A stretch of 63,632 nt of DNA, counting the filler, from Stramenopiles sp. TOSAG23-3 (Eukaryota): the NCBI GenBank assembly GCA_900128585.1. It is 14 parts of 14 records of this genome, joined end to end, with 100 filler letters (N's around TTAATTAATTAA, not from the genome) between each part and the next. Parts side by side here need not be neighbours in the genome. Positions count along the whole stretch, not along the records: positions 29,728 to 35,552 come from LT643427.1; 13 more parts are not named here. One strand, written 5' to 3'. The translations under genes were made by a program, and so were the position numbers. The notes beneath the pieces were generated by a model. It was not told the DNA's origin. It saw only the letters and a program-made list of their open reading frames with translations, and made no database searches. The stretch's first letter is position 1. Every line of letters starts with the position of its first letter. Positions 1-62,624 of the stretch are shown here, piece by piece.

Positions 1-1677
1 CTCTCCGGGTACAAAGAGCACGGGAAACCATATCGCTTACTAGGGTCGCAGTACAAGGGAACGGCCGACGAAAGACTGGTATTCATCAGAGACTTGTTCA
101 ACCATGAAGATAAGGGAAACAAAGGCTACTTGGAACCGGAAGAGTTTGGGCAACTTTCTTTGCAGCTCGGGGTACGGCTTGGCCCGCAGGAATTGGAAAA
201 GGCAGTCGCCGACATCGACGAGGACGGAAACGGGCAAATTGAAGTCGACGAGTACCTGGATTGGTGGGGAGACGATGAGTTGATCCATTTGTATGAAATG
301 CAATGCGATGCCCTGGAAGCTGGAAAGCCGTATAAAATGATGGGCGACACCTTGCGAGACGGCGATGTGGCGCAGCGCTTTGCTGTAATCAACCATTTAT
401 TCGAATTGAACGACGAGGGAAACAAGGAATATCTAGAACCCAGGGAATTCGGCATCGTTTCGAAAACGCTTGGGGTCAATTTATCGCCTTACGAGCTAAT
501 GAAAGCGATAGAAGAAATCGACGAAGATGGCAATGGTCAGATCGAGGTTGACGAATATCTAGATTGGTGGGCTGACCCTGAATTAGTTGAGTATTTCGAA
601 GAGTACGAAGAATCTGGCAAGCTTCCACAAAATGCCATAGACTTTGCTCGAAAGTGGTTTGACGACCGGGAGCAAGAGAAGCTAGACCAGGCAGAGAGAA
701 AAAAAGAGGAAGAATTAATGGCGAAAGGCATCGTTAAGAAAACGATTGCACCTGGGCAGAAGAAAGTAGAGGGCGAGAAAACAAGGCTGAACCGCGTGGA
801 TTTCATTGTCGCCTCGCATTGCCGCGTAGTTGACATGCATAATTTTTTCCGCTTTTGGGAATGGTTGAGTAAATCGGAACAGTTGGAACTTATGAAGCGT
901 TTGGGGTGGTTGAATACGTTTGACCCGTGCATGCCTGAGAGAAGGCATTACCTGGATCTGACCAACAGGGAAGAAAGGGTAATAACCATGATGTTAGTTC
1001 GATTGGCGATGGTGGAGCCTGGAGAAAATTGGCTTCATGAGCACTACTTCAATCCCAACTTTCGGCCTGGGTGGGAATTGCCTATGTCTTGGACACAGGC
1101 TATACCTGCTGAGGGACACCTGGTACTGACGTACGCATCATCGTTAAAGGGTTGCGAGGCGGTGTGGCCTGAGCGCATAAAGTTAAGAAAATTTACTTGC
1201 ATCCCGAAAGCCGCCCCGCTTCCCCCAGAAGCGGGCGTTGACCATGGGCTGCATACTCTGGGCTTTCCCATTTCGTACACTGCATTTATCCGTCTCGTGT
1301 CATCCGAAGCACCATTGGAAGAAACCTTTGGGAAGGCCATACATCAAGCAGAAGATGTTTTTGCCGCCCTAAAAGAGAAAGAAAATTTTTCCCCTGATTC
1401 AGATGCGGAAAGCGAGTACACCGATTCCGACGAGTACGAGGAAGCAGCTGAACGATGGTGCCCTACAAAGAAATGCGAGAAGAGCTTTTTTGATCTCATC
1501 AAACATCACGAACGTGAAATGGCAAAGGCGCAGAGAGAGAAACTAGACCTAGAGCAAGTACTGCAGGTGGAGTGGAAACGGTTTTTGAAGGCATTTGAAA
1601 AGTTGGTGGAGCAGCATCCAAATGTAGCCGTCATAGGAAAACGATTTGATGCGCTATTCGAACATTTGGATTGGTAA
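1..1677 (+). CDS. EF-hand calcium-binding protein, 5'-partial, with two repeated EF-hand modules and an uncharacterised C-terminal domain
   Basis: Frame is open from base 1. Two near-identical modules each contain a canonical EF loop DEDGNGQIEVDE and a degenerate loop (D.GNK.YLEP.EF). Bases 1-24 are copied from 5114-5137 (see findings). Confidence 0.85.
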   Translation, partial: LSGYKEHGKPYRLLGSQYKGTADERLVFIRDLFNHEDKGNKGYLEPEEFGQLSLQLGVRLGPQELEKAVADIDEDGNGQIEVDEYLDWWGDDELIHLYEMQCDALEAGKPYKMMGDTLRDGDVAQRFAVINHLFELNDEGNKEYLEPREFGIVSKTLGVNLSPYELMKAIEEIDEDGNGQIEVDEYLDWWADPELVEYFEEYEESGKLPQNAIDFARKWFDDREQEKLDQAERKKEEELMAKGIVKKTIAPGQKKVEGEKTRLNRVDFIVASHCRVVDMHNFFRFWEWLSKSEQLELMKRLGWLNTFDPCMPERRHYLDLTNREERVITMMLVRLAMVEPGENWLHEHYFNPNFRPGWELPMSWTQAIPAEGHLVLTYASSLKGCEAVWPERIKLRKFTCIPKAAPLPPEAGVDHGLHTLGFPISYTAFIRLVSSEAPLEETFGKAIHQAEDVFAALKEKENFSPDSDAESEYTDSDEYEEAAERWCPTKKCEKSFFDLIKHHEREMAKAQREKLDLEQVLQVEWKRFLKAFEKLVEQHPNVAVIGKRFDALFEHLDW

Positions 1678-30187: not shown

Positions 30188-33100
30188 ATGGCCGAGGATG
30201 GAGAGAAGAAGCCCAGTGGGGGCTGCAAAGGGTTTTGCCGACGGCAGTGCAGAAAACGATTAGGGTGCCCCCCCACAAAAACCTCAAAATGGTGGTTGAT
30301 CCCGCACATGATGGGTTTCTTTTCGTTTCTTTTGCTGACCTACCGGACGTACGAATTGGGCACCGTCAACGAAGGCCTGACCGTAGCGCTGGGAAAGATA
30401 AACACTGCACCTAGTACGGCTTGGACTACCTTTGACGAAGTAACGAGTCACTTAACGCTTATAAAGTTCCTGAGAACAAACTTGTTGAAAAATGTCGATG
30501 CCGCGGAGGATAGCGATTTCAATTCTTACCAAGACGACAAAAGCAACGGCCACAAACTGCACCTTAGCGCACGCTCACTGCCCGTCACCTTTCTGCCCAT
30601 TACCTTGGAGCAGACGCGCCACGAACACGCTCCGCTATGCAACCATTACAAGGAAAACAAAAAGTTTGTCATCGCAGTCGAGGGAAACTGCGAAAAAGAG
30701 TACCTTGACTTGCACAAATATGGCGACCAACTCGTCCAGGACGCGGAAACGTCAAAAGTGACGGGGGTATTTTGCCCCGCGTTTGACGGAATTGACTTCC
30801 CAAAGAACATGTCGTACAACCCGTTCGAGAAAGTTAAATCGACGCTGGTGCTCCCAGAATGTATGCTCGGAACGAAGAATGTTGGCTGCGGCGCCCGAAA
30901 AGAAGTTTACCAGGTCCGAAACCTGTCCCCAAAACCGGAGGACCAAGGAGGAAAGTCTATGACCCAAATGCTCGATATCTTGAACGGCTGCCGCTGGATA
31001 GATCTTCAGACCAAAGAAGTTCTCATCTCTGTGCCGTTTCTGGTAAAGGCAAGCGGGGTCCAAGGCGAGATACGGTACACCGTTCAATTTTCGACATCCG
31101 GGGAAGCTTCCACGACGTATAAAGTCAGTTATGCAAAGCACATTCAGACATCGGGGGAATACTACGCCCAGCTGAGCCACTCCGACCCGAACATTAGCTC
31201 CATGGCGATGGGGAGTCTTGTCTGTAGGATATACATGACAGTTTACTTGATCGCAGAAATTTACATGCGCAATCAGGTACAATTTAAAGCTGCCTTAAAA
31301 ATGGACCTCGGGGCCGACAAAGAGGGAGAAGCGCCGACTCCAATGTGGAAGAAGAAAGGGAAAAAATGCATGTACGTGACAAAAACACTATTTCCAGGCG
31401 CCACCGAATTTCTTGGTTTTGGACTCTTGGTCTCGTCACTCATCATACCACTCTTTTACGACGCCATCAACACGGAAATGAAATTTAACGAAGAAACTCT
31501 CACGAGCATTGGTTCTGGAAAGTTGCTTTGGAACACCCCCACAGAGGATGGCACCGTCACCTCTACGTTCCTGGATCACATGATGTACGCGCAGCAAAAC
31601 ATGTTTCGGACTAATTCCATAATCGTTATTGTCTGTTCTATGTGGCTCTTGAAATTGATGATACTGTTCAGCGTGACCGACGATGTGAACGTCGTGCCGC
31701 ACACGCTGATAAAATCATTGCCTCCCATCTTTAACTTGATGATCGTGATCAGCACAATGGTCACTACCTTCGCGGCAATGGCCATGGTGTGCTACGGCCA
31801 TGTGCTATCTAGGTGGACAAAACCCGCACTGATGATGCTTGAAGTGTACCGGATGATGCTCGGGGACTACGGCGACCAGTACATCGAAATGTACAACGAG
31901 GACAAAACCATTGCGATAATCCTGTTCTTGTTTTTTAGTGTAGTATTAATGATGACGGTCGTGAACATATTTATGTCTGTCGTGCTCGATACGTACGCCG
32001 AAGTCAACAAGGACGAATACAAGGAAACGGTACGCAGAAAGGCCGAGGCGGCCCTTGCTGCAAGAGAAAGCGTCTCAATTGCACCACCGCAGCAACAAAA
32101 CACAAAGAAGGCAAACTTGTGCAGAAAATGTTTTAGAATGTGCACGTGTTGCTGTCGCAAACTGCCAAAAAAAGGTTCAAAGTGGTTGCTCATCCCGCAC
32201 TTATTGGGATTCTTCGCGTTCATGTTGGTAATTTTTAACACCTACAAGCTCTCTGAAGTCAACGAAGGACTCTCCACCGCAAAGGGATATATTTCGACAA
32301 CGGAAATGAATGGTGTTAAAACCTTTGAAAAGATTTCGAGTGTGGAAGACGTGTACACGTTTTTAACCATGAATGTGATCCCTAATATGCACGAAGGATG
32401 GAACTCGGATTATATGGGCCGAAACTATCTTCCTCTTGATTCGGATTTGTATACTCCACAAAACTTTATACCAATTTTGTTCTTACCCTTCTCGATCGAA
32501 CAGACGCGGCGACTGTCGCCTGGGGTGTGCAAGGACTACAAAGACTCTACGAGCGAAGAAGACCAGAACTTTATGAAAGGGTTTGGAGCGGACTGCAAAG
32601 TCATAACAGGTCGAAAGTTCGGGGAATTACCCATACCCGACAAAAACTATACTACGGTGGCATCCTGCCCATTTTTTAAGGAGAAGAAAGGTACCGACCA
32701 TGAAATCAAACCGGACCCTTTCACACTTACAGAGTCCTTCTTGGAATTGCCAGAACAAGTATACATGATCGAAAACGTTGCGTATTACTCCAAACCATAC
32801 AACGATGGATTTCCCACCGATCACTCGCAGGGAACAATCACGGCAACAATGGTAGTTAACGCACTGAAGAAGTGCTATTGGATCGACTTACAAACGAAAC
32901 AAATTTTTATAAATATTCCATTCGCGGTCAAGGGATCGATGGTCTTTGGAAGTTTGCAATACAGGATTGATTTTACCGAGTCTGGAAAGCCGACTTTGGG
33001 GTCAACGATGTATTACGCCCGTACTATCGATACGGCGACCGGCGCAATCTCATCACTTTGCAGCGCATACATACTGATTTACCTGTGTGTAGAGCTGGTG

Positions 33101-34120
33101 TTGCGAAACTTTATCAGAATCAGCACCGCTTTTAAGGCAAAAAAGCCCTGTTGCAAAAAGTTGAAAGGAATAATTCTTTCTTTCTTTCCAGGGGTACCAG
33201 AGTATTTGTCCATGACTTTGTTGGCATCCCAGAGTGGTTTCCCCATTATCATTGGCATGGTGAACACACGCGTCGCAGAGATCGTGTCCCAATTTGACAA
33301 AGTTGCAGATGGAGTAGGGAATCCTGGAGACCCCGCTTTCATGAAGGCTTTCAATGGGTACGTGAAGGCCGCATTGCACGAGCAGCAAGGTTTGAACGGG
33401 TACACCATGTTCATCATGGTTCTGTTCTTGGTGAAAATGCTGTACGTGTTCTACGATACGGATGGTGTGAGCGTTGTCCCGAGAACGTTGGTGAGGTCCC
33501 TGTTTCCAATATTCAACCTGTTGATCGTCATCATTGCGATGGTAGCAAGTTTTGCCGGCATGGCCATGGTGTGCTACGGTCACTCGTTTGCCCGTTGGAC
33601 CAACCCGTTCTTGATGCTTTTGGAAGTTTACCAAATGATGCTTGGGGATTGGGGAGAGCAGTACAATGAGATGTACAACCAGGACAGGCTGTTGGCAATA
33701 ATTTTATTTTTGTTCTTCAGCATTGTTCTGATGATGACAATGATCAACATATTCCTGTCTGTCGTGCTGGACACGTACGCTGCAATAAACGAGGAAGAGG
33801 CGAAAAAAGCAAAGGAAAACGGTCCCGAACAGAGTGGTCCGAGTGTGAGTGTCAAAGTAGCGCCCGCACCCACGCCCGCGCCGTCCCAACCGGTCGTCCC
33901 GGAGAAAAGCGTTGATTTGGATGACCCCCTTGGGAACGTGGGCGACCGTTTGCGGATTACGAGGCAGCAGTACGGGGCAGGCTCGGACGAGTACAAATCG
34001 GTAATGGAGGAGGCATCCAACCTGAAAAATGACCAACTTCGGCAGGAAGAGGATGCCGGGAAAGGAGGAGAAGGCGGAGACCCCAAACCGAACGAAGAGA
34101 AAGGTGATTCCCCCGTTTAA
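30188..34120 (+). CDS. Polycystin-2/TRPP-like cation channel with two complete tandem channel units
   Basis: Each half has S1, a large extracellular loop with WIDLQTK (cf. the PKD2 WID..T motif), S2-S4, S5 ending AMVCYGH, pore MMLGD[Y/W], and S6 NIF.SVVLDTY. Confidence 0.85.
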   Translation: MAEDGEKKPSGGCKGFCRRQCRKRLGCPPTKTSKWWLIPHMMGFFSFLLLTYRTYELGTVNEGLTVALGKINTAPSTAWTTFDEVTSHLTLIKFLRTNLLKNVDAAEDSDFNSYQDDKSNGHKLHLSARSLPVTFLPITLEQTRHEHAPLCNHYKENKKFVIAVEGNCEKEYLDLHKYGDQLVQDAETSKVTGVFCPAFDGIDFPKNMSYNPFEKVKSTLVLPECMLGTKNVGCGARKEVYQVRNLSPKPEDQGGKSMTQMLDILNGCRWIDLQTKEVLISVPFLVKASGVQGEIRYTVQFSTSGEASTTYKVSYAKHIQTSGEYYAQLSHSDPNISSMAMGSLVCRIYMTVYLIAEIYMRNQVQFKAALKMDLGADKEGEAPTPMWKKKGKKCMYVTKTLFPGATEFLGFGLLVSSLIIPLFYDAINTEMKFNEETLTSIGSGKLLWNTPTEDGTVTSTFLDHMMYAQQNMFRTNSIIVIVCSMWLLKLMILFSVTDDVNVVPHTLIKSLPPIFNLMIVISTMVTTFAAMAMVCYGHVLSRWTKPALMMLEVYRMMLGDYGDQYIEMYNEDKTIAIILFLFFSVVLMMTVVNIFMSVVLDTYAEVNKDEYKETVRRKAEAALAARESVSIAPPQQQNTKKANLCRKCFRMCTCCCRKLPKKGSKWLLIPHLLGFFAFMLVIFNTYKLSEVNEGLSTAKGYISTTEMNGVKTFEKISSVEDVYTFLTMNVIPNMHEGWNSDYMGRNYLPLDSDLYTPQNFIPILFLPFSIEQTRRLSPGVCKDYKDSTSEEDQNFMKGFGADCKVITGRKFGELPIPDKNYTTVASCPFFKEKKGTDHEIKPDPFTLTESFLELPEQVYMIENVAYYSKPYNDGFPTDHSQGTITATMVVNALKKCYWIDLQTKQIFINIPFAVKGSMVFGSLQYRIDFTESGKPTLGSTMYYARTIDTATGAISSLCSAYILIYLCVELVLRNFIRISTAFKAKKPCCKKLKGIILSFFPGVPEYLSMTLLASQSGFPIIIGMVNTRVAEIVSQFDKVADGVGNPGDPAFMKAFNGYVKAALHEQQGLNGYTMFIMVLFLVKMLYVFYDTDGVSVVPRTLVRSLFPIFNLLIVIIAMVASFAGMAMVCYGHSFARWTNPFLMLLEVYQMMLGDWGEQYNEMYNQDRLLAIILFLFFSIVLMMTMINIFLSVVLDTYAAINEEEAKKAKENGPEQSGPSVSVKVAPAPTPAPSQPVVPEKSVDLDDPLGNVGDRLRITRQQYGAGSDEYKSVMEEASNLKNDQLRQEEDAGKGGEGGDPKPNEEKGDSPV

Positions 34121-35552: not shown

Positions 35553-35652
35553 NNNNNNNNNNNNNNNNNNNNNNNNNNNNNNNNNNNNNNNNNNNNTTAA
35601 TTAATTAANNNNNNNNNNNNNNNNNNNNNNNNNNNNNNNNNNNNNNNNNNNN
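35553..35652. other. Artificial contig spacer
   Basis: N44-TTAATTAATTAA-N44. Confidence 0.99.
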
Positions 35653-37317
35653 ATTGAATTCGGCGATCCTACTTTGGGTGATGATCTTAGCAAATCTCTG
35701 AATTTTGCCACGCTGCGCAAGAAAGGAATTACGATCGGAAACAGCGGTGAACAACAATATACATGGCGACCATGTTGTTCAGAACAATACAGATGGCGAC
35801 CATGCTGTTCAAAATGCAGTTCGAAAGTTCAAGCTACCATCAAGCGACCATGCTGTTCAAAATACAGTTCGAAAGTTCAAGCTGCAGATCCCCCTGCAAC
35901 CGCCGATGAGCCTCAAGAGTCGTCCGAAACAAGAAAAACTTGTAAAAACTGGATTAAATTATTCTTTGCAAGCGTACATGTGGAATTTTGGGTCATTTAT
36001 CAGAACATTATTTTGCTAGGTGGTGTCCAGTTGGTCGTATCAGTTGCAACCCGCTTGTATTCTCCCAAGAAAGGAACGGAATCAGGGGGGGAACACTCGT
36101 TTAAAAGAACGGGGACAGACATACAAAAAAAATGTAGTGTGGCAAATAATTTAAAGAGCGGAACGGAAGATTCAACTGTGGTGACTATTTCCGAGTCAAG
36201 CGAAAAAGAGTCTGAACGCAGACAAGAACAAGCGACTGATAAAAATACTGGTTCTCCTTTTAAACGTCTTCAAAGAAGAGCATCACTCACCATTAGCAAA
36301 CTGATCAATCATACTGATGCAGATGCTGAAGAAAAAAGTGCACATGCCGAAGAAAAAATTGCACACCCTGAAGAAAAAAGTGCAAATCCTGAAGTAAAAA
36401 GTGCCACTAGTAGTGTAATTGGTCCTAATAATACTTATGATGGCAAGGCGTTTCGTTTATGGCGCCAATCGATGTATCGAAATGATTATTTTCAAGAATG
36501 GTGGAATTTTTACGAGTGGATGTTAATTTTGTTATTTGCCGCATACTTTTTTGGAGAACAGACGCGAGACTCATTCAACCGCGAAACCCGTCTGAAAATT
36601 GTGTCGGTGTTGGAAAGCATGAGCAACGAGTTTGTGCCTTTGGACAATCTTTCTTTCTATGTCACGCAAACGCAAGACATTGTGGCCATCGTGTTTATTT
36701 TTGTTTGCATTCATTTCCTTCGAATCATGCAAGAAGTCCCTTACGGTATCGGGGCAAGGGTCATGGCAATATTAAAGGTCATACCCCACAAAGACGTGTT
36801 TCCTTTCTACGTCACACTCATCATTATGATTCTCTCGTTCGCGATCGGAATACATTTTGCATACGCGAACGAAATAGTGGAGTACCGACAATTGGCATCG
36901 AGTTTTCTAAACGTATTCTTTGCATCCTTTGGTGATTTTGGCATCGGCGTAGAAGATATGATGGACTCTGCAGAGACTATCACGTATTTATTTGTTTTGC
37001 TATTGATTTTGCTCGTTTCGCTCATTATGATGAACATTTTCATTGGCGTTGTGGGAAGTGTTTATGAAAAAACGGAGGAACAATCTTTAGAGCAGTTTGA
37101 AACGGATCTGGACAAGTATTATATTGCAAACTTGGATGAAGACTTTCGTAAAAAGGCGGATGACTGTTTGATGGAGAACTTTGAAAGAAATGTGCTTGAA
37201 GGAAATCACCAGGATGATGATATTGGCAACTCTGACGAGTTTAAAAAATGGATATTGGCAACTCTGACGAGTTTAAAAAATGGTAACACAGGGCACAAAC
37301 GGTTGGGAATCAGTTGA
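35653..37317 (+). CDS. TRP/polycystin-like ion channel, 5'-partial
   Basis: WNFYEW in S3, FLR in S4, S5 ending FAYA, pore FASFGDF, S6 MMNIFIGVVGSVY. Frame is open from the contig edge. Confidence 0.82.
   Translation: MEFGDPTLGDDLSKSLNFATLRKKGITIGNSGEQQYTWRPCCSEQYRWRPCCSKCSSKVQATIKRPCCSKYSSKVQAADPPATADEPQESSETRKTCKNWIKLFFASVHVEFWVIYQNIILLGGVQLVVSVATRLYSPKKGTESGGEHSFKRTGTDIQKKCSVANNLKSGTEDSTVVTISESSEKESERRQEQATDKNTGSPFKRLQRRASLTISKLINHTDADAEEKSAHAEEKIAHPEEKSANPEVKSATSSVIGPNNTYDGKAFRLWRQSMYRNDYFQEWWNFYEWMLILLFAAYFFGEQTRDSFNRETRLKIVSVLESMSNEFVPLDNLSFYVTQTQDIVAIVFIFVCIHFLRIMQEVPYGIGARVMAILKVIPHKDVFPFYVTLIIMILSFAIGIHFAYANEIVEYRQLASSFLNVFFASFGDFGIGVEDMMDSAETITYLFVLLLILLVSLIMMNIFIGVVGSVYEKTEEQSLEQFETDLDKYYIANLDEDFRKKADDCLMENFERNVLEGNHQDDDIGNSDEFKKWILATLTSLKNGNTGHKRLGIS
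35763..35883 (+). repeat. In-frame coding repeats (RPCCS x3, SSKVQA x2)
   Basis: GCGACCATG(T/C)TGTTCA recurs at 30- and 48-nt spacing. Confidence 0.85.
36325..36405 (+). repeat. 21-nt coding minisatellite, about 4 copies ([A/P]EEKSAH)
   Basis: Direct inspection. Confidence 0.85.
37219..37282 (+). repeat. Perfect 32-bp tandem duplication inside the CDS
   Basis: GATATTGGCAACTCTGACGAGTTTAAAAAATG x2. Confidence 0.95.
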
Positions 37318-53399: not shown

Positions 53400-53641
53400 A
53401 AGAAGAACAAAAAAAAATAATAGAGCTTAAAAAATGAAAGTATAAATATAAGTTATACGTGAAGAAATTTTATAGAAGAAAAGGATGATTCTATATTAAA
53501 CAATTGATGGCATTTAATCAACCTGACGTTTTAGTCCACAGCTTGCTCTTGGTAGTATTTTTAACTTCCCCGTTGAATCGAAAGGGCAAAGTTGAAAAAC
53601 TCTGGTGTTTCATTGATTTCCTCCATCAACGAAGACCATCA

Positions 53642-55639
53642 ATGGCGACTTTAAGCCAGCTCTGGTCGTCGCAGACGGGGGAAACGGACGAAGACGTGAG
53701 AAAACGAATGAATTGTATAAAGAACCATTGGGCTGGGTTTAAGCAGCGGCTAAAACGGCGTGAATTTCTCGAGCTGACGGCAGAGGTATGTAACATTTTT
53801 GAAGCACAGCGCGATAAGAGACGAAAAACTAAACTTGATCATTTTAACGAAACGGGGCAGCAGTTTTACCAAGTAGATGATCTGATTAGGGTTGAGCTGG
53901 ACGACAGTATGAAACTCCCCTTTGAAACGTCCAAACCGACCGTGTACATGCTTATTAAGCATGTGTGTAAGAACGACATACATCTACTTTGCCACCTCTG
54001 CATTCGGCCGTGCGAAACCATTTACTACGAAAACTCTGCCGCGAGGAACGAAGTGTTTCTTGTCACGAAACAGGGGAAGTACTTTCCCTTCCACATACGA
54101 CTTACCAGCATACAAGACCAGCACTACCCGCTGCCGTTTAAGAAGGTTGGGGAATGGACGCTTTCGACGGAGTACGACTTGGTCGGAGGAGCACTAACGG
54201 ATACAGCTGATGCGAGGCTTTGCTACGCCAAAGCGCCGTACAAGGGGGACGTCCCTTTGCTCGACCTTTTCTCTGGTTGTGGTGGGTTTTCACTAGGTTT
54301 CAGGGACGCTCGAGCAAGTGCGGTGCGGGAGGCCCCGGCGGTCCCGGCGCATCCATTGAAAAAGCGTCGGTATAACCCCATCCCTGACGTCAACAGCTGC
54401 TCTGCCAGCACGGAGGCTCGTTCAGCACCATCGTCGTCTGAGGGGCCCGACGCCGCACACGCCAGCGACGACAATGGCGTAAGAATCGTACCTGCTGTTC
54501 TCCTGGACTGCAACGCGGATGCCTGCTTAACGGCACGGACCAATTTCAAAGACGCGAACGTGGTGGAAAGTAGAATTCAAACAACGGGCAGGGAGGAGCA
54601 CATAGCGACAGCCGCGCCATTTTCAAAATTTGGCATCGTGATCGATGGATCTCCGTGTCAAGGGTTCTCCTCTGCAAACAGTTGGAACCGAGAGACTTGG
54701 GATGCAAGGAACGATCTGATCCTCGTGGCCGCAAAGACTGCAGTTAAATTGGAGGCGGGGTACTCTGTGAAGGAAAATAGCCCGCAAATTTTGAATATGA
54801 AGCGCCCCGGGGACGAGCTGCCAATTCTGTTCGAACTGGTACGATACTACCATGAAAACGAGTACCAGGTCGCGGTGCACGTACTTTGGGGCCCTTACGT
54901 TGGTGTTCCGCAAACGAGAACGCGCGTGTTCCTCGTTGCAGCGCAAAAGGGCCGCTCTCTCCCCAAGTTCATATTACCGACCCACCGTATCAAACTAGAT
55001 CGGAAAAAACGTATACCGGCTTTCGTTTCCGTTGACCCAGTGTTGAGGGCTTCGGTTGCAGGATTCAACGACTGGAAGGACGCTATCGGGTTCGAGGACA
55101 TGGGTGGCTTGAAACCACCCGTGACAGTAGGAGCAGCACTACGGCCGTGGGAGTACAGACCGCCGAATGACAAACAAACAGGGCACTTCGTGACCCAGTC
55201 TACGAAGGCGAAGACTAGAAATGCCCACGCAGACCGGCACGAGTTGGCATCGCAGAACGTTGTTAAAGAGAAGGACAACACGATCAAAAAGGAGGACTAT
55301 GCACCGACCATTTTGGCCAGTGGATGGAGCGGTGCAGGGAAAGGCGAAAGGGGCAGTATCATGTGGCATTACAGCCAATCGCGAACGCTGACCATCCGTG
55401 AAGCTGCATGTATCCAAGGCTTTCCAGAAACGTTTCAGTTCGCCACGAAAACCAGTGCAATAACGAAAGACAAATGGTTTGCCGACACTTGGCGACAGGT
55501 TGGGAATGCTGTCCCGCCGCCAATGGCGAACGCGGTTGCTGCTCACATTCTTGAGTCCGCAGAGAAGGACGCTAACATCGGGAAAGCATTGCAGCATTTT
55601 TTAGACGAGAACCAAGGGATCAGAGACGTTTGTTGTTAA
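53642..55639 (+). CDS. C5 cytosine DNA methyltransferase with an N-terminal BAH-like domain
   Basis: Motif I LDLFSGCGG, IV GSPCQGFS, VI KENS, VIII GVPQTRTRVF, IX RTLTIREAACIQGFP, X RQVGNAVPPP. BAH-like segment YQVDD.IRV...RP.ET...RNEVFL. Confidence 0.9.
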   Translation: MATLSQLWSSQTGETDEDVRKRMNCIKNHWAGFKQRLKRREFLELTAEVCNIFEAQRDKRRKTKLDHFNETGQQFYQVDDLIRVELDDSMKLPFETSKPTVYMLIKHVCKNDIHLLCHLCIRPCETIYYENSAARNEVFLVTKQGKYFPFHIRLTSIQDQHYPLPFKKVGEWTLSTEYDLVGGALTDTADARLCYAKAPYKGDVPLLDLFSGCGGFSLGFRDARASAVREAPAVPAHPLKKRRYNPIPDVNSCSASTEARSAPSSSEGPDAAHASDDNGVRIVPAVLLDCNADACLTARTNFKDANVVESRIQTTGREEHIATAAPFSKFGIVIDGSPCQGFSSANSWNRETWDARNDLILVAAKTAVKLEAGYSVKENSPQILNMKRPGDELPILFELVRYYHENEYQVAVHVLWGPYVGVPQTRTRVFLVAAQKGRSLPKFILPTHRIKLDRKKRIPAFVSVDPVLRASVAGFNDWKDAIGFEDMGGLKPPVTVGAALRPWEYRPPNDKQTGHFVTQSTKAKTRNAHADRHELASQNVVKEKDNTIKKEDYAPTILASGWSGAGKGERGSIMWHYSQSRTLTIREAACIQGFPETFQFATKTSAITKDKWFADTWRQVGNAVPPPMANAVAAHILESAEKDANIGKALQHFLDENQGIRDVCC

Positions 55640-61848: not shown

Positions 61849-62524
61849 ATGGCACGTGCACGTGATGTCCAAGCGGACTTTGCGCAGCTCCAGCGGGAGT
61901 ACCGCAACATGGAGCAGAACCGAAAGGCGTACACCGAGGAGAGCCAGAACATTATCAGGCGGCAGCAAAAGTCCGTCGACAAGCTCAGGAAAGAGAACGA
62001 GTCGTTGAAGAGCGAGCTTGCCATGGAAACCCGGCACGCCAGTGTCAAGGTCAGCACGGCCCACGCCTCGAGGCTATCCAGCCTTCAGGAGCAGGGCAAT
62101 TTGTACACAAGTAAGATCGCGATCCAGGAGAAGAACGTCGGGGAGATCAACAAGCAGATCAAACTCCTGCAGGAGAAGATTCTAATCCAGCGGAAGAAGA
62201 TGGGGGGCGTGAACGCCGCGCGGGAGAACCAGCTCATGGTGCAGAAGCAGATCCGTATTTTGGAGAACCGCCTGGACAAGGCCCTCGTGAAGTTCAACGA
62301 GGCCTTGGCCCACAACAAGAATCTGCGCGAAGAGATCGACAACCTGAGAAGGGAGCGCGTCGTGTTCGACAACATCTACCGGAAGCTCGAGAAGGAGCTC
62401 CACGAGAAGAAGAAGCAGATGGCGAACATAATCGAGATTTCCAACCAGGCCCTCTCCAAGATAGCTGAGCTAGAAAGCGCCGCGCTGGTGCTGTCCTCCG
62501 AGAATTCCCGGTTGCAAAAGGACA
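61849..62524 (+). CDS. CCDC114: Outer dynein arm docking complex subunit (ODA1/CCDC114-like), 3'-partial
   Basis: LQREYR.ME..RKAY.EESQ, MGGVNA, QIRILENRLDKALVKFN...N..LR.EID.LR.ER..F. Confidence 0.88.
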
Positions 62525-62624
62525 NNNNNNNNNNNNNNNNNNNNNNNNNNNNNNNNNNNNNNNNNNNNTTAATTAATTAANNNNNNNNNNNNNNNNNNNN
62601 NNNNNNNNNNNNNNNNNNNNNNNN
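62525..62624. other. Artificial contig spacer
   Basis: N44-TTAATTAATTAA-N44. Confidence 0.99.

Follow-up and report, generated by a model that had tools for sequence, protein, structure and literature searches.

The window, 63,632 nucleotides from Stramenopiles sp. TOSAG23-3, consists of separate contigs strung together with N spacers between them. The contig at 29728–35552 (G000:C3123) carries a single intact open reading frame on the plus strand, which requires no intron and encodes a protein of 1310 residues, denoted P0001; the open frame begins at 30062, with no methionine upstream of the start at 30188. A sequence-only reading had described this ORF as an intronless internal duplication, and this is confirmed: the frame is open throughout, it encodes two Pfam channel domains, and the halves align with each other. 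The motifs it had named (KW.LIPH..GFF, EQTR, WIDLQTK, RMMLGDY and QMMLGDW) are all present in the translation. The sequencing runs that contain the gene indicate that its host is an uncultured marine single-celled eukaryote; the genome assembly is fragmented (7088 contigs), and a search of it for 18S rRNA gave no match. A PKD-like ORF at 35605–37317 was considered as a neighbouring gene, but was dropped as it lies on a different contig.

Features of the two-repeat polycystin gene (coordinates are those of the window)
Feature	Position	Strand	Evidence
Two-repeat polycystin-2-like channel, P0001, 1310 aa	30188..34120	+	ORF, Pfam; no internal indel in 4 runs
Cys/basic cytosolic segment preceding unit A S1, aa 13–27; candidate lipid-attachment site	30224..30268	+	sequence; attachment putative
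Unit A S1, aa 36–55	30293..30352	+	helix in model; 56% identity with unit B S1
Unit A TOP (polycystin) domain, aa 56–337; beta-sheet, four Cys common to unit B	30353..31198	+	half alignment, model
Unit A S2–S4, aa 338–496; single S4 Lys, K489	31199..31675	+	alignments, hydropathy
Unit A S5, pore helix, filter LGDY (31859–31870), S6	31736..32008	+	Pfam, PKD2 and homologue alignments
Cytosolic inter-unit linker, including unit B Cys/basic segment aa 645–656	32009..32179	+	alignment, bridging contigs; low pLDDT
Unit B S1, aa 667–685	32186..32242	+	hydropathy, model
Unit B TOP domain, aa 686–953	32243..33046	+	alignment, model
Unit B S2–S4, aa 954–1089; single S4 Lys	33047..33454	+	hydropathy, alignment
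Unit B S5, pore helix, filter LGDW (33641–33652), S6	33518..33799	+	Pfam, hydropathy, alignment
Short C-terminal motif R..R..YGA.S.EY; candidate assembly element	33926..34012	+	conservation; role putative

Pfam identifies two PKD_channel (PF08016) and two Ion_trans domains above cut-off, one of each in either half, as had been predicted for PKD_channel; Polycystin_dom scores below threshold (16.8 bits, where 23.6 are required). Our own profile places unit A at residues 31–609 (30278–32014) and unit B at residues 661–1205 (32168–33802), near the limits first proposed (about 30220–32010 and 32117–33790). A hydropathy scan at a threshold of 1.3 gives 11 helices; the S1 of unit A lies below this threshold yet is helical in the structure model, as is that of unit B, so that the total comes to the 12 or so expected. 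The S1–S2 loops, put at some 270 residues in the initial reading, span about 280 residues in unit A and 270 in unit B, and each S4 contains one lysine and no arginine series. In the TOP domain of unit B, C781, C803, C827 and C896 are invariant across six aligned proteins.

Aligned with each other, the two halves are 36% identical across 621 columns (E 5e-120), with conservation distributed unevenly between modules: 56% in S1, 33% in the TOP domain, 28% in S2–S4, and 70% in the pore module. Synonymous sites are saturated throughout (pS 0.78–0.85), whilst pN in the pore module is 0.17 (dN 0.19, dS saturated), values which bear out the proposal that like pores and diverged loops reflect an old duplication kept under selection. 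At the DNA level the halves match only over 371 nt (70%) and 44 nt (77%), and no long near-identical repeat is present on the gene's contig. Given the saturated synonymous sites, the weak DNA match and the lack of such a repeat, the two-unit structure is an old duplication and not an assembly repeat. Population variants in the ORF (15 non-synonymous, 5 synonymous; some from low-depth contigs) are not distinct from neutral (p 0.79), and none falls within either pore module.

A profile of the close family has PKD2L1 and PKD2 as its top matches (E ~1e-27), well ahead of CaV/NaV, and neither a TPC nor a mucolipin is found among the best 60 of its 171 matches. The LGD filter, S4 and S6 are PKD2-like on alignment to PKD2. 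When a model of unit B (pLDDT 86) is searched against 48,161 chains, PKD2 ranks first (Z 21.0, rmsd 4.7, 422 of 463 PKD2 residues aligned), compared with Z 12.9 for TRPML1 and Z 13.4 for TPC3, the latter with merely 182 residues aligned at an rmsd of 12.7. In a model of both units, each half aligns on its own to the whole PKD2 chain (model residues 1–585 with PKD2 221–698), and a beta-sheet TOP domain is modelled in both. Residues 467–1163 of this model superpose on NaV1.7 (Z 20.0, rmsd 4.4, 319 residues), and the model suggests that the two pore modules are adjacent, like half of a four-repeat channel; since its pTM is 0.48 and its linker is unresolved, the packing of the units is a hint only.

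PKD2 has a C-terminal EF-hand. In P0001, Pfam detects neither an EF-hand family nor MCLN_ECD at E up to 0.1; nor is there a Pfam match to the GAIN/PLAT-type domains of polycystin-1-like (11-helix) proteins, in which such domains and five additional helices precede one channel unit. The N-terminal half of P0001 is itself a complete channel unit. Each unit matches the whole fold of polycystin-2 (PKD2/TRPP2) and PKD2L1 (PDB 6wb8, 5t4d, 6du8, 5z1w), including S1, the TOP domain, S2–S4, the LGD filter and the S6 motif. P0001 differs from both, however, in its two units per chain, in having one S4 lysine where they have two charges, in the absence of an EF-hand match and in its low structural identity (~15–17%); its pore is expected to be two-fold, where that of PKD2 is four-fold. 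As it has two units per chain, not one, it is a derived TRPP variant rather than a canonical TRPP.

TRP channels are tetramers of single six-helix subunits, with a pore that requires four S5–S6 modules; two chains of P0001 should therefore pair, and a two-fold symmetric pair would have the ring order A-B-A-B. We consider it probable that P0001 is a two-repeat (12-helix) channel, in which a polycystin-2-like subunit has been duplicated within the gene and two chains pair in this order. The duplication of the subunit gene would go back to the ancestor from which a small clade of protists descends. Most likely, the two chains form a nearly symmetric A-B-A-B cation pore, with the asymmetry residing in the TOP and S1–S4 modules. 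The pore itself would come close to four-fold symmetry, A and B differing in small, fixed ways: tyrosine or tryptophan after the filter, methionine or leucine in the S6 gate. A fixed asymmetry of both pore and sensors had been proposed; most of it would lie in the TOP and S2–S4 modules, the pore being nearly symmetric. The TOP domains and S1–S4 bundles of the two units have diverged and probably supply two types of sensor, or of surface for binding partners, at a constant 2:2 stoichiometry; animals reach this outcome by mixing separate polycystin subunits. With a single lysine in each S4 and a PKD2-like LGD filter in both units, the channel would conduct cations non-selectively, probably including Ca2+, and would respond little to voltage. 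To place it on the flagellum or at the cell surface would be a guess based on its family.

The polycystin-1/polycystin-2 and PKD1L3/PKD2L1 heteromers (PDB 6a70, 7d7e) likewise combine unlike TOP and pore modules in set proportions within one channel. They are 1:3 assemblies whose subunits are encoded by separate genes and whose pore is asymmetric (passages of PMC12799467), whereas P0001 is proposed to be 2:2, from one gene and with both filters intact. Were P0001 to act in the polycystin-1/polycystin-2 manner, one unit, or both at a low ratio, would join single-unit polycystins as a regulatory partner and the protein would not be self-sufficient. Possible partners exist in the host genome, where nearly all of the 45 PKD_channel matches lie within single-unit ORFs, and 1:3 heteromers are established in the same passages; nonetheless, we think such a role unlikely, since the two pore modules share 70% identity, are intact and are strongly constrained, as expected if both line the pore and pack together. 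The contrast is provided by a second group of two-unit polycystins, in which the unit A filters are degenerate.

Alternatively, the chain could be cleaved within the linker, as the precursor of two ordinary subunits of a heterotetramer, the fusion merely securing their 1:1 supply. The linker is basic, predicted to be disordered and variable in length (47–68 residues from the end of S6 to S1 in five proteins), and cleavage is reported for Toxoplasma TgTRPPL-2 (bands near 115 kDa and 150 kDa, including tag; PMC8216714) and for Chlamydomonas PKD2 (210 to 120 + 90 kD; PMC2064795). We nevertheless regard a precursor as improbable: a conserved cleavage motif is not visible in the five linkers, which appear long enough to connect neighbouring subunits uncut, and the pore would in any case stay 2A:2B.

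The fused two-unit gene assumed by the A-B-A-B reading is confirmed to be real and conserved. Across positions 32000–32200, where reads or transcripts had been proposed as a check, a DNA contig from an unrelated study, with its own alleles, forms a gap-free bridge (31374–32445), and short, unstranded RNA-library contigs continue through the linker (31881–32173 and 31887–32121), the longest stopping 5 nt inside unit B; no full-length transcript was seen among the RNA-library contigs examined. The junction lacks a stop or indel in all four runs examined, with no sign of two separate genes. Contig X1, the sole one spanning the whole ORF, was left out as possibly the source of the same DNA, and the RNA contigs of X17 and X18 leave parts of the flanks bare, which was not counted as evidence. 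P0002 is an independent copy, 99% identical to P0001, and P0003–P0006 (43–45% identical) all cross the junction in a single frame, A matching A and B matching B; two near-complete units are present only in P0001, P0002 and P0003, with P0004–P0006 being partial. Every aligned member of this family keeps its two filters and S6 motifs intact, the aspartate of the LGD filter being replaced by glutamate or asparagine in some homologues' units. That the ORF is an assembly chimera, or a tandem gene pair read as one, is very improbable and largely refuted by the open frame, the bridging contig and the homologues that cross the junction; in addition, a collapsed repeat would not leave halves as diverged as these. 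In favour of a chimera, the assembly is fragmented and the paralogue on contig C5251 seems to be interrupted by a sizeable internal gap.

All three trees separate the A units from the B units; in the best-model tree, support for the A clade is modest (84/71) and the root is placed among the B units. P0008, considered as a possible ancestor from before the duplication, branches outside the two halves as their sister in two quick trees, and on the A side in a careful one (80/89). Both halves lie on the polycystin side, split from TPC/CaV domains with support of 99, in a tree including three own-genome TPC-like proteins and one four-repeat channel; the trees contain no named TRPML sequence. Constraining the halves to group with the separate, true TPCs that the host genome carries is rejected (p-AU 0.002). 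A divergent TPC that gained large loops would have a like two-repeat layout, but there is next to no chance of this and we reject it, given these tree results, the close kinship of the halves with each other, unlike that of TPC domains I and II, the TOP domain, and the S4 without an arginine series. Pfam, fold and trees thus support two complete TRPP-like units with an origin independent of two-pore channels, as the sequence-only reading had held.

TPC1–3 (PDB 6c96, 5e1j, 6v1q) and diatom TPCL share with P0001 the two six-helix repeats per chain, and P0001 is expected to be dimeric likewise; unlike it, TPCs descend from voltage-gated channels, lack a TOP domain and have an arginine-rich S4 and short S1–S2 loops, and those of the host genome group apart. 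Published two-repeat Kv-like and CNBD channels made the same move, a repeated independent doubling of a six-helix subunit with separate repeat clades, as described in one paper; they are of other families, and 'TRP' is absent from its main text.

At least five unrelated two-unit polycystins occur among the 150 relatives listed, and tree tests reject a single shared origin for the two two-unit groups tested. The two-repeat polycystin design appears to have several separate origins among protists. The host genome has what may be a second two-unit paralogue (G000:C5251), the one apparently broken by a large gap. No longer form (1580–4510 aa) scored among 2951 candidates, which is weak evidence against four-unit versions; no homologous locus was confirmed among 265 + 22 metagenome-contig and 117 viral-contig pattern matches, and the seven ESM Atlas matches listed comprise only polycystin clusters of single-unit length.

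According to passages of PMC8216714, TgTRPPL-2 (2191 aa, 14 predicted helices) conducts Ca2+ without dependence on voltage; together with apicomplexan TrpP homologues (passages of PMC3194816) it represents long polycystin-like proteins with 12–19 predicted helices. Those passages describe no repeat. TgTRPPL-2 may be an unrecognised two-repeat example. The earlier remark that no characterised example was known, made without excluding one, is unsafe to read as absence, because this possibly two-unit protein has already been recorded electrically. The literature searched, which took in few subscription papers, yielded no description of a two-repeat TRP channel or of this architecture as a family. 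Such a channel is likewise absent from passages of PMC7312350, PMC7399828, 10.1101/2025.02.15.638427, 10.64898/2026.06.15.732245 and PMC11085791.

A broader proposal, which we find plausible while placing it somewhat short of an even chance, is an unrecognised protist class of TRP channels, the two-repeat polycystins, with at least three origins. Its members would include an alveolate-like group whose first filter is degenerate, perhaps TgTRPPL-2, and the P0001 clade, in which both filters are kept and a single pore carries two unlike extracellular sensors. If, in addition, P0001 pairs with the second two-unit paralogue of its genome, no two units of the pore would be alike, and the channel would offer an extant model of how two repeats became four. 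Taken singly, the components and the principle of the design are already known, which limits the surprise of a two-repeat polycystin. Nonetheless, a natural two-repeat TRP that is small, intron-free and easily expressed, with both pores intact, offers a direct test of what repeat fusion confers, be it fixed stoichiometry, split sensors or an asymmetric gate, and bears on the origin of voltage-gated channels with two or four repeats, as well as on the way in which a single pore is shared between unlike polycystin subunits. The long apicomplexan polycystins are worth re-reading as two-repeat channels.

The C-terminal motif of P0001 also occurs in P0003, P0004, P0005, P0007 and P0012.

The open reading frame at window positions 30188–34120 (plus strand), which encodes the protein denoted P0001, runs for 1310 residues without a stop and requires no intron. 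Pfam places two PKD_channel and two Ion_trans stretches in it, one of each in either half, and the halves (units A and B, tabulated below) are 36% identical over 621 alignment columns. Hydropathy gives 11 helices, with the weaker S1 of unit A supplied additionally by the structure model. Identity between the units is 56% in S1, 33% in the polycystin (TOP) domain of the S1–S2 extracellular loop, 28% in S2–S4 and 70% in the pore module; synonymous sites are saturated, with a pore dN of 0.19. The sequence-only reading, which had described an intronless frame of two TRPP units with similar pores and diverged loops, and had expected two PKD_channel matches and about 12 helices, is accurate as a description.

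Units of P0001 (residue numbering)
Feature	Position (aa)	Strand	Basis
Unit A	31–609	+	unit profile
Unit B	661–1205	+	unit profile

Both units retain an LGD-type filter, one S4 lysine and the PKD2 S6 motif. Across the aligned homologues the residue after the filter is fixed as Tyr in unit A and Trp in unit B, and an S6 residue is fixed as Met in A and Leu in B, at the position aligned with the lower gate of PKD2. A short conserved C-terminal motif (window 33926–34012), common to five homologues, has no Pfam match.

A profile built from the 24 closest sequences matched PKD2L1 and PKD2 at E values of about 1e-27, followed by PKD1L3 and CaV chains at 1e-10; neither a two-pore channel (TPC) nor a mucolipin was present among the best 60 of 171 matches. 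Modelled alone (pLDDT 86, pTM 0.80), unit B resembles PKD2 best among 48,161 chains (Z 21.0, rmsd 4.7, 422 residues aligned), compared with Z 13.4 for TPC3 (182 aligned, rmsd 12.7) and 12.9 for TRPML1 (381 aligned). The two-unit model (pLDDT 72, pTM 0.48) returned polycystins only among the Foldseek matches listed, and either half aligns to one whole PKD2 chain. Its residues 467–1163 align with NaV1.7 over 319 residues (rmsd 4.4), which suggests that the two pore modules are set side by side, a hint only at pTM 0.48.

It is established (PMC12799467) that four S5–S6 modules make up a TRPP pore, that coupling links the TOP domain to the S1–S4 bundle, and that channels of the PKD2 type pass cations, Ca2+ included, without selectivity. 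We consider it probable that two P0001 chains would pair to build the pore, the linker between A and B units (47–68 residues across five proteins) being able to join neighbouring units, and the two-fold symmetry of the pair giving an A-B-A-B ring. Since the pore modules have remained similar and TOP and S2–S4 have diverged, what is gained is probably a fixed ratio of two sorts of sensor or partner surface rather than a new selectivity. That P0001 instead acts as a partner of single-unit polycystins is unlikely. Cleavage of the chain into two subunits is similarly doubtful. In TgTRPPL-2 of Toxoplasma 14 helices are predicted; it is a cleaved, Ca2+-conducting protein, and the passages concerned mention no repeat (PMC8216714). 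TgTRPPL-2 may be an already characterised two-repeat polycystin; the literature searched yielded no account of a TRP channel with two repeats. Apicomplexan TrpP homologues are given 12–19 predicted helices, alongside shorter ones, in the part of PMC3194816 concerned, and the relevant part of PMC7576140 describes several independent origins for Kv-like as well as CNBD channels with two repeats.

P0001 is a real, conserved two-repeat polycystin-type channel, and an artefactual two-unit ORF is very improbable. A protein search (8000 candidates scored) returned five homologues, P0002 at 99% identity and P0003–P0006 at 43–45% when aligned. In all five a single frame runs through the junction. Both units are nearly complete in P0002 and P0003; the sequences of P0004 and P0005 open at S2 within unit A, and that of P0006 ends inside unit B. 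The junction region is present in 20 of the 24 sequencing runs listed (14 studies), two of these being possible sources of the window DNA. Contigs of four runs were compared with the window, and X1, though spanning everything, was excluded as a possible source. As had been sought across 32000–32200, another study's DNA contig bridges 31374–32445 gap-free with five substitutions, and RNA-library contigs from two further studies, unstranded and none a full-length transcript, cover 31881–32173 and 31887–32121. All four indels seen in the compared runs lie outside the ORF. Its 20 substitutions, several from contigs of depth <5, comprise 15 non-synonymous and 5 synonymous changes, matching neutral expectation (p 0.79), a ratio that we count as a point against the fusion. 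None of the 20 falls within the pore modules, and the TOP domains hold 10 of the 15 non-synonymous changes; diversifying selection on the outer surface is possible. Codon 728 (window 32369–32371, unit B TOP domain) encodes five residues in five sources: Met in the window, Lys in P0002, and Thr, Arg and Ser in runs X17, X18 and X8, the last combining two changes by hand.

That P0001 is itself a TPC can be dismissed almost entirely: in a tree of 68 S4–S6 pieces both halves lie with polycystins on one side of a split (support 99) that has the TPC and CaV domains on the other, and their grouping with TPC was rejected (p-AU 0.002), in a quick LG+G4 analysis of 167 columns with groups named after an earlier tree had been seen. 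The claimed independence from TPCs stands. The genome has two-pore channels of its own (L039 and L040), a TPC-like locus (L038) and 45 PKD_channel matches, P0001 being the only ORF with two of them.

When 1.84 billion representatives were searched with a profile, 396 matched; 150 of these were listed, among which the nearest full-length relatives outside the P0001 clade are single-unit proteins; one close relative, P0008, carries a C-terminal SH3 domain. Each of the three trees keeps A units apart from B units, with supports of 95 and 93 in one and 84 and 82 in another; in the third, the A clade has 84/71, the root lies among B units, and the entire P0001 clade is set off from nine relatives with one unit each (100/100). 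A single duplication therefore came before these lineages split; together with the saturated synonymous sites, this upholds the earlier view of an old duplication. A paralogue on contig C5251 (L006:1184–2934) has its N-terminal part placed with unit A (98/95) and its C-terminal part on the B side; the frame does not carry across the join between them near position 2015, and P0011 and P0017 match the two parts. This paralogue is probably a second two-unit gene with its middle missing, through an assembly gap or a real deletion.

Two pore modules occur in six of the 150 listed representatives, P0005 and the unrelated P0040, P0053, P0063, P0081 and P0095. P0095 has eight further relatives (P0156–P0163; 37–82% identity, seven of the eight two-pore), a family of about 1330 residues that with P0040, P0053 and P0063 makes up a second two-unit set, in which the LGD pattern is mostly lost in the first filter and kept in the second. 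P0081, one sequence only and conceivably a gene-model fusion, has halves that pair as sisters (100) and lie within a group of single-unit proteins. A single clade of the P0001 family with the P0095/P0040 group (p-AU 6e-15) or with P0081 (p-AU 8e-4) was rejected, and these tests of the P0001 family against each other group point to about three origins of the two-unit design. A viral scan with P0001-clade patterns confirmed no locus among 117 pattern matches.

The window strings contigs together with N spacers, and on the 5825-base contig of P0001 the only adjoining gene is coatomer-epsilon. The C-terminal part of another PKD_channel gene (35605–37317), truncated by its contig start, was rejected as a neighbour, since the adjacency comes only from the stringing. 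Other contigs carry a C-5 cytosine DNA methylase (53507–55639) and a fragment with a flagellar ODAD1 coiled coil (61849–62580). The genome's channel repertoire is large, with 128 Ion_trans matches besides those to PKD_channel; some of its polycystins carry ankyrin repeats, some EF-hands, and others WW or glutaredoxin domains; several of its channels have four repeats, and proteins on contigs C2695 and C2843 have two, with Ion_trans_2 matches.
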